Shown here: one piece after another, positions 16,209 to 34,626 of the stretch | Numbering within the stretch: position 1 is the first letter of the stretch | Layout: the number at the start of each line of letters is the position of its first letter | Source of the DNA: an uncultured Desulfurococcales archaeon | Lineage (GTDB): Archaea > Thermoproteota > Thermoprotei_A > Sulfolobales > CAZCAU01 | Assembly: GCA_964496855.1 (NCBI GenBank) | Contig: CAZCAU010000003.1 | Coordinates: 1-55,486 of the forward strand | DNA: 55,486 bases | Direction: 5' to 3' | Program-made: the position numbers and the translations under genes | The notes under the pieces: model-generated | What the model saw: the letters and a program-made list of their open reading frames with translations, nothing else | Database searches by the model: none | What the model was told of the DNA's origin: nothing

Positions 16209-16287
16209 TGGTGCGGCGGCCGGGATTTGAACCCGGGATCACCGGCTTGGAAGGCCGGCGTCCTAGTCCAGGCTAGACGACCGCCGC
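16209..16287 (-). tRNA. tRNA-Gly(TCC), intronless, CCA encoded
   Basis: Acceptor stem GCGGCGG/CCGCCGC, anticodon arm CCGGC-CTTCCAA-GCCGG, T arm CCGGG-TTCAAAT-CCCGG, ACCA end. Confidence 0.97.
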
Positions 16288-27343: not shown

Positions 27344-28276
27344 CCCAATAAGCTCTTCTAAAGTATGTAGCCTGGCGAATTCAAGATACTTGGCTAGTCC
27401 TCTAATTATATCTTCAAATACTTGGAAACCCTTCCATATTATCGCACTCCCGATCTGTACTGCTGAGGCACCTGCAAGAAAGAAGCGTATAGCCGATTCA
27501 TGGTCTACAACACCGCCAACCCCTATAATATCTATTGTCTCGCCGAAGTGTTTGTAGAGATCATATACTACTCTTAACGCTATAGGGTGTATGGCAGGAC
27601 CTGATAAGCCCCCGTAGATGTTGCTTAGCACAGGCTGTTTCGACCATATATCTATGTATAAGGCTTTGATAGTGTTTATAGCAGCAATAGCACAAGCACC
27701 AGCCTTTATCGCTTTCTCTGCCGACTCTAATAGTTTGTCTGCTAGTCCTATTTTTATTATCACAGGCTTTCCCTCCGAAACCTCTGTGACACTCCTTACG
27801 ACCTTGTAGACCTCTGAGGGATCACTACCTATTTCTAATCCATAGCTTTTTGTATGCGGGCAACTCAGGTTCACTTCTACAGCATCGGCGTTATTCTCGA
27901 ATGCCTTACTCGCTAGTTGCTGAAATTCTCTAGGAGACGAACCTGCGATGCTTACAATAACTGGTTTCTTATGCTTCTTTACCTCTTGTACAAAATCTTT
28001 AATACTACTAATTCCAGGATTCGGCAGACCCATGGCGTTTAAAAAGCCAATGTTGTTGATTTCAACGAGAACTGGTGGTTTGTAGCCCTCACGCGGCTCG
28101 ATCGTTATCGATTTCGTAACCACTGCACCTATTTCTCTAACACTCGCAACCCTACCCGCTAATGATGGCGATACTGCTAACACCCCACTAGCTATCATTA
28201 AAGGTGTTGATAAGCGTATCCCACATATACTGGTAGTTATTTTGCTGTATAACTCTTCATTCATACGGGTCGCCAA
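27323..28276 (-). CDS. pyrD: dihydroorotate dehydrogenase (type 1B) catalytic subunit
   Basis: VTKSIT, NAMGLPNPG, EVNLSCPH, INT, GGLSG and GVGGV motifs. Confidence 0.95.
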   Translation of the reverse strand: MATRMNEELYSKITTSICGIRLSTPLMIASGVLAVSPSLAGRVASVREIGAVVTKSITIEPREGYKPPVLVEINNIGFLNAMGLPNPGISSIKDFVQEVKKHKKPVIVSIAGSSPREFQQLASKAFENNADAVEVNLSCPHTKSYGLEIGSDPSEVYKVVRSVTEVSEGKPVIIKIGLADKLLESAEKAIKAGACAIAAINTIKALYIDIWSKQPVLSNIYGGLSGPAIHPIALRVVYDLYKHFGETIDIIGVGGVVDHESAIRFFLAGASAVQIGSAIIWKGFQVFEDIIRGLAKYLEFARLHTLEELIGLAHRLK

Positions 28277-28294
28277 CCATGCTAATTGTTTTGT

Positions 28295-29599
28295 TTATTT
28301 AGATTTGAGCAACGCTATATTTAGGGATACTGGCTTGGAGAATATCTCTCCATCAGCAAATACTATCCTGCCTCCCACGATAGTGTATTTTATTCGGAGA
28401 GGAGTATCTATCCAGTAGAAAAACGTGTTACTAGACTTAGAGAACAATATGCCTGGGTATATCTTGTTTGGACTTATTTCAACAATGGTGAAATTAGCTC
28501 TAGAACCTTCTTTTATATATCCTAGATACTTGTCTACACCGAGTATGTGTGCGGGGTTTCTAGATAGTAAATCTACTAGCATTTCAAGGCCTTTCATGCT
28601 GACTCCCGTAATTTTGGCTGTTAGGGAAACAAGAGTTTCAAGACCTATAATGCCTGGAGGACATATCGGGAAGGGTAGAGATTTTTCCGCAGAGCTATGG
28701 GGAGCATGATCCGAGACTACACTATCGAATACTCTATTTAGGAAAAGACTGACCATGCGCTGCCGCGATACATGGGGTTGCAGAGGCGGATTAATTTTAC
28801 CTATACACGACCTCCTCTCCTCTATAGCGCTATCTGCTAAAAGATAATGTGGAGCCGTATCTATAGTGAATCCGATATCCTTGGCCTTCATAGCAAGACT
28901 GGGAGATTGCACATGAGTTATATGTATTCTTCTTCCATGCAAACTATTCTCTTGCAGCATATCTATGATATCATACATCGCTATTAAACCAGGATCTCTA
29001 AACAACCATCTTCTCCCAGGTTTTGCAAAACTATCTCTAATAGCGTAGGGGTGTTCCGAGTGAAGTATAAATAACTCGTCCGGATTCTTTTTCAATAAGT
29101 CTATAAGCATATCTCGGCGTAGGACAAGGTCTTCTGGGTATATCTTGTATCCTAGAAACAGGTTCCGGTTTTCTGTAAGCTTGGTATAAGCATCTATAGA
29201 ATTAGGTATACCAACGTATATGCTATAATCCACATAGCTATTATCTTTCAATGATTCTAGCTTAGAAGTTAACGACTTTTTATCTCTAATAAACGGATGC
29301 GTATTCGGCATATCTGCTACGACTGTTATCCCTCCAGCAGCTGCAGCTTTGGTTCCGGTGGCTTCGTCTTCTTTATAGCTTAGGGAGAGTCCCCTCAAAT
29401 GAACATGCATGTCAATAAATCCCGGCAGTATTATAGTCTTTGTCTCGCTACTTAGATCTAGTAACTCGTTATGAGAAGCAAATGTGAATGTATAGCCCTT
29501 ATGTATCTCTTTAATAAAACCTGATGATATACATATTGAGGCGTCAACGACATCGTCATTGATAAATGCTTTTCCTTTTAAGATAAACTCGCATGCCAT
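28295..29599 (-). CDS. pyrC: dihydroorotase
   Basis: PGFIDMHVHLRG, KEDEATGT.AAAAGG.T..DMPNT, KINPPL and SDHAPH motifs; pyr operon context. Confidence 0.92.
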   Translation of the reverse strand: MACEFILKGKAFINDDVVDASICISSGFIKEIHKGYTFTFASHNELLDLSSETKTIILPGFIDMHVHLRGLSLSYKEDEATGTKAAAAGGITVVADMPNTHPFIRDKKSLTSKLESLKDNSYVDYSIYVGIPNSIDAYTKLTENRNLFLGYKIYPEDLVLRRDMLIDLLKKNPDELFILHSEHPYAIRDSFAKPGRRWLFRDPGLIAMYDIIDMLQENSLHGRRIHITHVQSPSLAMKAKDIGFTIDTAPHYLLADSAIEERRSCIGKINPPLQPHVSRQRMVSLFLNRVFDSVVSDHAPHSSAEKSLPFPICPPGIIGLETLVSLTAKITGVSMKGLEMLVDLLSRNPAHILGVDKYLGYIKEGSRANFTIVEISPNKIYPGILFSKSSNTFFYWIDTPLRIKYTIVGGRIVFADGEIFSKPVSLNIALLKSK

Positions 29600-30416: not shown

Positions 30417-30896
30417 TCAGCTTCTAAAAGACTCTAATATATCTTCTTCTTTATGATATGTTCCACAATACTCGCAGCGCAGCTTTAATGGTTTCTTAGA
30501 GATAAGTGTGAATACCGTTTGTATAGGTTCTCTAGGCAAGTTAGAGATACAGGTGGGGTTCCTACATTTGATGAGACCTTTAATATACATCGGTATTTCT
30601 ACTCTTCTTTTCTCTTTTACCATGTAATCTTCTATAATGTTTATAGTAGCTGTAGGCGCTATAAGGGATATCAAGTTCACTTCATCCCAGCTTAATATCC
30701 TGTCTTCTATTTTCACAATATCCTTCTTTCCAAGTCTCTTGCTCTCAACATTCATAACCACAGCTACACGTATATTCTCTTTACCAGTAATCCCTAGTAT
30801 TCTGAGAACATCCAGCGAGCGACCTGCTGGTATATGGTCTATAACAGTCCCTCTTTTTATCTTCCTTACAAGCAACTCTGTCCCATAACTCTTCAT
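30417..30896 (-). CDS. pyrI: aspartate carbamoyltransferase regulatory subunit
   Basis: [15 protein letters not shown] and CRNPTCISN...CEYC Zn site. ATG at 30896 follows GGTGA. Confidence 0.96.
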
Positions 30897-33938: not shown

Positions 33939-34104
33939 TATAAATCTCAGCTCAATAAGCAATACAGGGATGATCGGGGCCAGGATAGAGGATTAATAAA
34001 GATGACTGCTTCACGGACCGGGAGACCACTTCTCAACAAATAGAAACCGTCTTACCACTCTTCTTATTATCGAGATACTGCAAAGAAGTGGTGGCGGGGC
34101 CCCG

Positions 34105-34280
34105 TGGTAGCGGGGGGTGGACTTTCCCGGGGCAGATTACCGCCCCGTTTTGAACCACCGACCTCGGGTGCGACCCCTACTTAGAGGTGTGTCTCCGAGG
34201 CGGTTAGCCCCTTATGAGCTTCGCGGGGCGGAGTTTTTCTCCGCGCCTCCCGCGGGCTAACCAGGCTACCCTACCCCGCT
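34105..34280 (-). tRNA. initiator tRNA-Met(CAT) interrupted by four introns (34248-34220, 34212-34191, 34188-34169, 34148-34122)
   Basis: Joining exons 34280-34249, 34219-34213, 34190-34189, 34168-34149 and 34121-34105 gives AGCGGGGTAGGGTAGCCTGGTTAGCCCGCGGGGCTCATAACCCCGAGGTCGGTGGTTCAAATCCACCCCCCGCTACCA. This is a complete 78-nt cloverleaf with A1-U72, G11-C24 and three G-C pairs in the anticodon stem. Every junction lies in a BHB-like fold. Confidence 0.9.
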
Positions 34281-34319
34281 ACTTCTCCCCGCCAGTAGAA
34301 AACAATGTAACACTGGGGG

Positions 34320-34332
34320 TAATAAAGTTTTG
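34320..34332 (-). promoter_or_regulatory. BRE/TATA promoter of tRNA-iMet
   Basis: Minus strand CAAAACTTTATTA about 40-50 nt upstream of the mature 5' end, implying a leader of about 15 nt. Confidence 0.55.
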
Positions 34333-34339
34333 ATCAATA

Positions 34340-34501
34340 TTATTTATGTTTGGGATTTCTATTTTTACAATCATAATTTACTGGGTCTAAACCTAGTTTT
34401 TTGAGTTGTTGACACAGATTTTTTAATGGTATAACTGCTTTGCCCCCATACTCGTTTTCCAGTATGACAACATCTCCTTTTACAACAACCTTGACTTTCA
34501 A
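34340..34501 (-). CDS. small hypothetical protein (53 aa), not in the ORF track
   Basis: TTG start after GGGTGA. Translation: MKVKVVVKGDVVILENEYGGKAVIPLKNLCQQLKKLGLDPVNYDCKNRNPKHK. Confidence 0.55.
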   Translation of the reverse strand: MKVKVVVKGDVVILENEYGGKAVIPLKNLCQQLKKLGLDPVNYDCKNRNPKHK

Positions 34502-34626
34502 CGTCGTCACCCATAAGCCTTGTTGCTCTAATATATTGATATTATTAATTAGACTCGTTTAATAGACTTTATAATAAGTATGGAGGTAACAATACTCACG
34601 ACATAGCTGTGAAGGTGTAGTTATTA

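Follow-up and report, generated by a model that had tools for sequence, protein, structure and literature searches.

The window analysed here is a stretch of 55,486 nucleotides (nt) from an uncultured Desulfurococcales archaeon (GenBank assembly GCA_964496855.1, contig CAZCAU010000003.1, positions 1 to 55,486), and its minus strand carries, from 34280 to 34105, the only initiator transfer RNA (tRNA) gene for methionine (iMet) found in the assembly. The gene is a contiguous block of 176 nt which starts with AGCGGGG, ends with CCCCGCUACCA (both read on the minus strand), and is divided into five exons by introns 1 to 4 of 29, 22, 20, and 27 nt, located at the tRNA junctions 30/31, 37/38, 39/40, and 59/60, respectively; the anticodon arm is thereby cut into the pieces 27-30, 31-37, 38-39, and 40-43. 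The subject of this report is exon 3, which consists of the two nucleotides AC, and the adjacent intron 3, the splicing signal of which is built on the sequence of intron 2.

When the four introns (Table 1) are excised in silico, the product has 78 nt and is called by ARAGORN as a perfect tRNA-Met(CAT) cloverleaf. The hallmarks of archaeal initiator tRNA-Met are the CAU anticodon, the A1-U72 pair, and three consecutive G-C pairs at 29-31/39-41, and all of them are present in the spliced product together with an encoded CCA, while the exons match those of intron-less orthologues. The other CAT calls of ARAGORN in the assembly (G000, a draft of 105 contigs, 95% complete) are one G1-C72 elongator-type gene and one dubious AT-rich match, and an intron-less orthologue used as query gave a strong match at the initiator locus only. 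No open reading frame of at least 60 amino acids overlaps the gene across 33939-34595. Both ARAGORN and the Rfam gathering search of the window missed the gene, the sole report being tRNA-Gly at 16209-16287. In 40 genomes of the same order some iMet genes have no interruption and others have many, with homologues of intron 1 in G032, G003, G014, and G010 and homologues of intron 4 in G032, G036, G039, and G020.

Archaeal tRNA introns are recognised by a motif called bulge-helix-bulge (BHB), where two 3-nt bulges on opposite strands are separated by a helix of 4 base pairs (bp) and the RNA is cut after the second base of the bulge. At least one flanking helix (h or h') belongs to the motif as well. 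Each of the 16 possible splicing states of the gene was tested for this geometry, the outer and inner helices being counted outward from the bulges. For intron 3 the outer helix is GCCUCGG/CCGAGGU with 7 bp, the central helix is AGAC/GUCG with three of four pairs and an A.G mismatch at the outer end, the bulges are AC/A and CA/C (the slash marks the cut), and an inner helix of 3 bp follows. Intron 2 contributes the two 5' strands of this motif with its last 11 nt (34201-34191), and the BHB of intron 3 therefore needs intron 2: the values of 3/4 central, 7 outer, and 3 inner pairs were obtained only in states retaining intron 2, and after its deletion intron 3 faces CAUA/GUCG with 1/4 pairs and an outer helix of 0. 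The tRNA alone offers no BHB at 39/40, since C41 would then need U33 as its 5' partner. In the chance control the 64 nt upstream were shuffled 5000 times, and 25 shuffles reached the BHB score of the window, which is 10.

Intron 2 possesses a central helix CUCA/GGAG (3/4) and an inner helix GGGGC/GCCUC (5 bp) in every state, and its outer helix, which is the anticodon stem, grows from 1 bp to 5 bp only once introns 1 and 3 are both gone; intron 2 thus also needs intron 1 out for the full outer helix. The bases 34197-34201 double as the 3' strand of the intron-2 inner helix, and since 34201-34193 are needed by both folds, the BHBs of introns 2 and 3 are mutually exclusive. Such exclusion is unavoidable for two BHB introns lying 2 nt apart, and the dependence between introns 2 and 3 runs both ways via the shared nucleotides. 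The geometry of introns 1 and 4 is unaffected by the other introns. An earlier note on this DNA had proposed the two helices of intron 3 with their intronic 5' strands, the 1/4 pairing after loss of intron 2, and the incompatibility of the two folds; the helices hold at the coordinates of Table 1, the loss of pairing was confirmed and extends to the outer helix, and the incompatibility is borne out by the shared bases.

Table 1. Features of the initiator tRNA-Met locus in the window (tRNA numbering where given; helix values as paired positions)
Feature	Position	Strand	Basis
Initiator tRNA-Met gene, five exons, four introns, encoded CCA	34105-34280	-	Spliced product; only iMet locus in the assembly
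Exon 1, tRNA 1-30	34249-34280	-	97% identity to intron-less orthologue over 1-32
Intron 1, HBh'	34220-34248	-	Central helix CGCG/CGCG 4/4, without outer helix, every splicing state
Exon 2, 7 nt, G31-A37 (CAU at 34216-34214)	34213-34219	-	Gene model
Intron 2	34191-34212	-	CUCA/GGAG 3/4, inner helix 5 bp
Exon 3, micro-exon AC (A38, C39)	34189-34190	-	Gene model, BHB geometry, conservation
Intron 3	34169-34188	-	BHB geometry
Exon 4, tRNA 40-59	34149-34168	-	Gene model
Intron 4 (T-loop), hBHBh'	34122-34148	-	Central 3/4, outer 5 bp, inner 8 bp, every state
Exon 5, tRNA 60-76 including CCA	34105-34121	-	Gene model
Intron-3 outer-helix 5' strand GCCUCGG, within intron 2	34195-34201	-	Pairs with 34161-34167
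Intron-3 central-helix 5' strand AGAC, within intron 2	34191-34194	-	Pairs with GUCG 34171-34174
Intron-3 outer-helix 3' strand CCGAGGU, tRNA 41-47, in exon 4	34161-34167	-	BHB geometry
Intron-2 5' half GGGCUAACC	34202-34210	-	9-bp complement of D-arm 34254-34262
Leader strand GGCGGGG	34287-34293	-	Pairs with trailer CCCCGCC 34093-34099, followed by ACCA 34089-34092

The existence of the micro-exon was examined at the same junctions. Removal of 34212-34169 as a single block gives CUCAUA joined to CCCG, without A38 and C39, and AC is available at 34190-34189; the statement of the earlier note that one intron cannot supply both bases was confirmed. Its claim of a 2-nt exon also stood, as the mature sequence requires AC, intron-less orthologues read CTCATAACCCCGAGG, and AC is invariant in 35/35 of the related sequences described below. 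The closest overall match among the 40 genomes of the order (G032) contains introns 1, 2, and 4 without intron 3 and reads GCUCGGAGAA followed directly by ACCCCGAGG, with AC joined straight to CCCG. The last two intron bases vary in relatives (CA, AT, AG, AA, CT, TT, GA, TG, and GG) and thus cannot be positions 38/39. No BHB was found at any single-block junction across 34213-34169 (central at most 3/4, outer at most 1, inner 0). In the course of splicing proposed below the 2-nt exon would at no point be set free, one of its ends being covalently joined to a larger RNA throughout. ARAGORN was tried as a judge between splice models and discarded, since the products of single-block removal (76 and 78 nt) receive a tRNA-Met call too and the program is too lenient to separate the models.

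The strongest evidence came from relatives of the gene, in which this arrangement is retained. Carriers of intron 3 were sought in 325 genomes of the order with the pattern of any non-C base before CCCGAGGTCGGTGGTTC; an iMet gene broken at 39/40 was found in 33 genomes, while the reversed control pattern gave 0. The carriers are distributed over five families, namely the window's own, f3 (15/52), f8 (7/67), f10 (8/63), and f7 (2/8). In a scan of genome contigs the same pattern marked at least 13 archaeal loci (13 of the 80 loci listed), and among the matches listed these are titled at NCBI as Desulfurococcales, Acidilobaceae, Desulfurococcaceae, or "Sulfolobales archaeon" metagenome-assembled genomes. 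After duplicate removal, with L167 (contig end), G240, and G321 left out, 35 distinct sequences were available for comparison.

In this set a BHB scan blind to sequence, in which every 5' cut 10-60 nt upstream was scored, placed the best cut after AC in 35/35 sequences, ahead of the runner-up by at least 2, and the resulting intron 3 has 12-31 nt in relatives. Of the outer helix, the five pairs nearest the inside persist in 34-35 of the 35 sequences; the central helix has 4/4 pairs in 12/35 relatives and is paired in 112 of 140 cells, a value that none of 2000 partner shuffles reached. The pair types are changed with preservation of pairing in the inner central pair (C-G 21, U-G 9, U-A 4) and in the first inner pair (C-G 28, U-A 6, G-C 1), while the outer central position contains A.G in 20, G-C in 7, A-U in 3, and G-U in 2 of the 35 sequences. 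In an alignment with the BHB written explicitly (A1, MAFFT) standard pairs occupy 90.0% of 449 cells versus 85.5% in shuffled data (0/500 shuffles reach it) and 23-64% in slid controls, outer-helix pairs are 96.1% kept, and double changes occur in 20 cells versus 6.9 expected (0/500). The contigs of four sequencing runs that align with the region are DNA, show no joints, and carry no information on splicing. As a side observation of minor consistency only, one of the related contigs (X2 record 11) differs at 34192 by a change from A to G (RNA strand), with a G.U pair kept.

The 11-nt intronic strand is strongly conserved and the remainder of intron 2 is variable. In 17/35 sequences exon 2 (GCTCATA) is found within 90 nt, with intron 2 in cis, and in 35/35 the 5' strands of the intron-3 BHB come either from intron 2 or, where the 3' half is split off, from its leader. 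When intron 2 was removed in silico (one spurious bacterial row, L141, being excluded), the outer helix fell to 0 and the central helix to 0-2/4 in 17/17 cis genes; in 15/15 cis genes with exon 1 in reach the intron-2 outer helix stayed at 1 bp unless introns 1 and 3 were both out, and then had 5 bp. The borrowing of 5' strands from the neighbouring intron, as had been read from the window by the earlier note, is supported by these counts. Each of the 35 genes with intron 3 also has an intron or a split at 37/38, without exception, and this is consistent with the suggestion, also made there, that intron 3 arose in or co-evolved with a gene already carrying intron 2. A counterexample scan of metagenomes with GCTCATAAC, 10 to 40 nt of any kind, and CCCGAGGTC showed no 39/40 intron of the studied kind among the 120 stretches listed; these are mostly unrelated, six have an archaeal iMet context, and four of the six are ordinary 37/38 introns starting with AC. 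The other two, metagenome contigs of another lineage (L303, L311), contain a single intron which fits 38/39 best, with a central helix of UCAU with GUGG or GUGC taken from the anticodon loop and without outer helix.

Four of the 325 genomes contain the flanks CUCGGRGAN-AC-CCCG without intron 3, namely L191 (G126), L192 (G153), L193 (G032), and L194 (G236), in which the strand CUCGGRGAN adjoins ACCCCGAGG directly. Their sequence reads as that predicted for the first splicing intermediate, and it could reflect either a precise loss of intron 3 or the state before its gain. Nine distinct sequences including the window have four short cis interruptions, the fourth in relatives being seen as extra T-arm length only. 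In L083 (G158) an intron 3 of 29 nt ends with CUCGGAGAA, a repeat of the usual intron-2 3' end, and its own central helix has 2/4 pairs; this sequence hints that intron 3 may stem from a local duplication.

In a second part of the set, 16 of the 35 intron-3 carriers, exon 2 is absent within 400 nt, the leader of the 3' half contains the strand, and a TATA-like box lies upstream of the 3' part. In L003 (G036), L008 (G028), and L019 (G029) the 5' half was found 1.2-1.4 kb upstream, and these genomes read GCCUCGGAGAC, AC, about 20 nt, and CCCGAGG in succession. The 5' part ends with CTCATA and a GC-rich tail, and this tail and the leader that precedes the 3' part are complementary. Judged by their sequence, the 16 resemble initiator tRNA genes that are either split (trans-spliced) or interrupted by very long 37/38 introns, and L052 and L177 seem to be split at 30/31.

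The assembly encodes two EndA-domain proteins (PF01974; 107.6 and 33.9 bits) and RtcB (PF01139; 573 bits). Two EndA paralogues would match what is expected for a heterotetramer of broad specificity, and the presence of these genes predicts cleavage of intron 3 by EndA and ligation by RtcB. The genes of RtcB (27472-28779) and of the weaker EndA (30417-30650) are located outside the window on one strand of contig C8, with some 1.6 kb between them, and the other EndA gene is on contig C21 (14487-14741).

The energetics of the competing folds were estimated as well. At 37 C the local energies that keep GCCUCGG/CCGAGGU are -13.3 kcal/mol for the strict BHB and -18.1 kcal/mol for a 6-bp alternative hairpin versus -8.0 kcal/mol for the intron-2 fold. 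With introns 1, 3, and 4 out and the cloverleaf fixed, the complete intron-2 motif (hBHBh', with central, outer, and inner helices) and the hairpin have -42.5 versus -37.0 at 37 C and -16.9 versus -15.3 at 70 C, both in favour of the intron-2 motif, and -5.3 versus -5.7 at 85 C, where it is not favoured. In the unconstrained ensemble the GCCUCGG hairpin has a probability (P) of 0.96-1.00 in every state, and a helix between the D-arm and intron 2 has P 0.49-0.94 across states. Of the two conformers envisaged by the earlier note, the outer helix of intron 3 is thus strongly predicted by RNAfold, while the strict BHB registers and the refolded intron 2 are not predicted, and the nearest-neighbour model backs the masking helix and not the refolding step.

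The D-arm helix is an observation in its own right. The segment 34202-34210 (GGGCUAACC) can pair without mismatch over 9 bp with the D-loop and the 3' side of the D-stem (GGUUAGCCC, 34254-34262, minus strand), an extra U in the D-loop of the window is matched by an extra A in intron 2, and the pairing appears in both the minimum free energy (MFE) structure and the ensemble. Complementarity to the D-arm of 7-12 bp is present in 11/16 cis genes, at most 11/300 shuffles reaching it in nine of them and more in two; one clade (L090, L106, L174, L175) as well as L087 and L150 do not have it. A role of this helix in splicing would have to be deduced from the pairing itself.

According to these data the following course of splicing may be proposed. 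In the primary transcript a 7-bp helix of the intron-2 3' end with tRNA positions 41-47 would present intron 3 and sequester the bases that intron 2 requires. The last 11 nt of intron 2 would serve as a surrogate 5' strand, GCCUCGG forming the outer helix and AGAC the central helix with the 3' end of intron 3. Intron 3 would then be excised by EndA and C39 ligated to C40 by RtcB, the 2-nt exon staying on intron 2 and afterwards also on exon 4. Introns 1 and 4, as self-contained motifs, could exit at any time. Once introns 1 and 3 were gone, the 5-bp anticodon stem would form, and intron 2 would refold (GGGGC/GCCUC with CUC/GAG) into the full hBHBh' motif and leave last.

The reading of a four-intron iMet gene in which the BHB of intron 3 is built on intron 2 and intron 3 is removed before intron 2 is given a probability of roughly 80%. 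The gene model, the geometry, the exclusivity of folds, conservation with covariation, and the enzyme genes are observed, and the in vivo order and the refolding of intron 2 would follow from the structure. Since the 5' strands of the intron-3 BHB lie inside intron 2 and this arrangement is conserved, removal of intron 3 before intron 2, as the earlier note had proposed, is well supported on structural grounds, with the 17/17 cis genes in agreement. Several points weigh against this reading. The central helices of introns 2 and 3 in the window each have one A.G mismatch; intron 2 possesses an HBh' motif (3/4 central, 5 inner pairs) before intron 3 leaves, and an enzyme of broad specificity could in principle cut it early. 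The number of pairs with a double change (5 versus 3.8 shuffled, 108/500) and the number of further pair types (14 versus 12.5 shuffled, 88/500) are not above shuffles, RNAalifold returns six outer and two inner pairs and not the central helix, and the counts are not independent because the compared sequences are related. RNAfold gives no strict intron-3 BHB register (central P 0.01-0.02, the 6-bp alternative hairpin winning by 4.8 kcal/mol) and assigns P 0.00 to both the anticodon stem and the intron-2 BHB pairs whatever the state, also with introns 1 and 3 out, and the MFE structure (-52.5) consists of the D-arm:intron-2 helix and the GCCUCGG hairpin. However, RNAfold also fails to give the canonical cloverleaf for the mature tRNA, and as the mature tRNA is misfolded by the same model, the missing intron-2 fold is weak evidence.

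The points on intron 2 lead to the possibility that the order is preferred and not obligatory, so that intron 2 may be cut first via its relaxed HBh' motif and intron 3 be removed later, either by the excised intron 2 pairing in trans with positions 41-47 or by an enzyme accepting the inner helix and the 3' bulge as a half-motif. This is unlikely, with a small but real chance. The central and inner helices of intron 2 are there in every state, the two-paralogue EndA is a type linked to relaxed motifs (review PMC4090602), and the split relatives show BHBs assembled from two RNAs; but the nick would fall exactly between the central helix and the AC-bearing 5' bulge of intron 3, the geometry left behind has 1/4 central and 0 outer pairs in the window and 0-2/4 and 0 in the 17 cis relatives, the helix that masks the intron-2 strands has 7 bp at P 0.96-1.00, and the 11-nt intronic strand is strongly conserved where the rest of intron 2 varies.

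Much less probable are two further explanations. One assumes no micro-exon, a single block of 42-44 nt being removed and the mature loop or stem being shortened or a G31.A39 mismatch being accepted; it can appeal to the ARAGORN calls for the single-block products and is nevertheless very improbable, because none of the single-block junctions has a BHB, the would-be 38/39 bases vary in relatives while AC is invariant, and both the intron-less orthologues and G032 have A38 and C39. The other, which deserves hardly any weight, regards the locus as a decaying pseudogene with the motifs as leftovers: the gene is missed by standard finders, and in a draft at this completeness another copy could be unassembled; against this, no other iMet locus was found in the assembly, the exons without exception are intact and yield a perfect initiator cloverleaf, and the same architecture with compensatory changes is present in 33/325 genomes of five families.

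Starting from the removal of intron 3 before intron 2, a wider interpretation may tentatively be considered, for which the odds are somewhat short of even: intron 2 would be a built-in folding scaffold with a doubly used sequence, and the architecture would be ancient and lost only by a permitted path. Its 5' half would pair with the D-arm (9 bp in the window) and its 3' half with positions 41-47, and this open form of the precursor would present introns 1 and 3 to the endonuclease and mask the intron-2 motif; with the flanking introns out the tRNA would fold and intron 2 would become a canonical substrate. The arrangement would be old in uncultured Desulfurococcales-like archaea and persist when the gene is split at 37/38, and relatives resembling the intron-3-less intermediate exist, with none that lack intron 2 and have intron 3.

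Some additional features surround the gene. The leader GGCGGGG, 6 nt before +1, and the trailer CCCCGCC followed by ACCA can form an acceptor-like minihelix around the whole gene; a longest leader-trailer helix followed by CCA or ACCA was found in 24/42 distinct iMet contexts, including intron-less genes, with the covarying variants GGGGGGC/GCCCCCC, GGGAGGC/GCCUCCC, and GGGGCCG/CGGCCCC, and the shuffle control is uninformative here because of the G+C-rich composition. The tRNA-Gly(TCC) gene mentioned above, on the minus strand, is ordinary and uninterrupted (63.3 bits in Rfam). ARAGORN in intron mode on the whole assembly gave 35 tRNA calls, nine with an intron and at least one dubious, and several anticodons are missing; thus other tRNA genes of this genome are probably multiply interrupted or split too.

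For crenarchaeal tRNAs a maximum of three introns is stated (PMC4390854; PMC4033280; also in passages of PMC8450103), whereas the window gene has four. No report of a 2-nt tRNA exon, of a BHB formed with a neighbouring intron, or of a four-intron crenarchaeal tRNA was found in the literature searched, which did not extend to the primary papers on nested introns and their supplements, where comparable cases may be contained; these three features are apparently new. The gene offers a clear example from nature of protein-catalysed tRNA splicing whose order would be set by shared nucleotides and not by motif stability, and it explains how a two-base exon can survive, being always attached to a larger RNA. 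Also, a BHB can arise at a site for which the mature tRNA supplies none if the adjacent intron lends the missing strand, which would open more positions to intron gain, and the cis and split versions of one junction are useful material on the interconversion of split tRNA genes and introns. As standard finders miss the gene, genomes of this group will appear to be without initiator tRNA.

Sugahara et al. (2007, RNA) and Tocchini-Valentini et al. (2009, PNAS) reportedly described nested, sequentially spliced BHB introns in Thermoproteales pre-tRNAs, the abstract of the latter being said to word them as nested one inside the other. This wording is echoed in passages of PMC3978253, and according to passages of that paper and of PMC8450103 it is established that archaeal tRNA introns lying close together have to be removed in succession. 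As far as these passages go, the Thermoproteales pre-tRNAs and the window gene have in common several BHB introns, one BHB that forms only after the removal of another intron (in the window that of intron 2), and sequential rounds of cutting and ligation by a crenarchaeal endonuclease of broad specificity. Unlike in those cases, the intron removed first in the window would be not inside another intron but in exon sequence, 2 nt downstream (3') of intron 2, and its BHB is a hybrid, with intronic 5' strands and an exonic 3' strand, next to a 2-nt exon.

Passages of PMC3218864 describe the split initiator tRNA of Nanoarchaeum equitans, joined at 37/38, which is the same tRNA and the same junction, and half of the relatives with intron 3 appear to have a split or a very long intron at 37/38, with a GC-rich joining helix. 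The window gene differs from N. equitans in being contiguous over its 176 nt, hence not split, with an intron 2 of 22 nt, and the N. equitans passages contain neither a 39/40 intron nor a micro-exon. Up to five intervening sequences, many of them unannotated, are given for Asgard tRNA genes in passages of a preprint (bioRxiv 10.64898/2026.10.13.758758), which share with the window gene a number of intervening sequences per tRNA gene above three; the intron-3 scheme also agrees with the relaxed BHB class described there, but Asgard is a different phylum and those passages do not mention micro-exons, nested introns, or order. In the multi-intron nuclear tRNAs of the red alga Cyanidioschyzon merolae the order was demonstrated experimentally, with the 37/38 intron last (passages of PMC3728597), and in the order proposed here the 37/38 intron of the window gene would likewise exit last. 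According to the same passages each BHB of C. merolae folds independently and the order is determined by motif stability, whereas in the window gene it would result from nucleotides shared by two introns.

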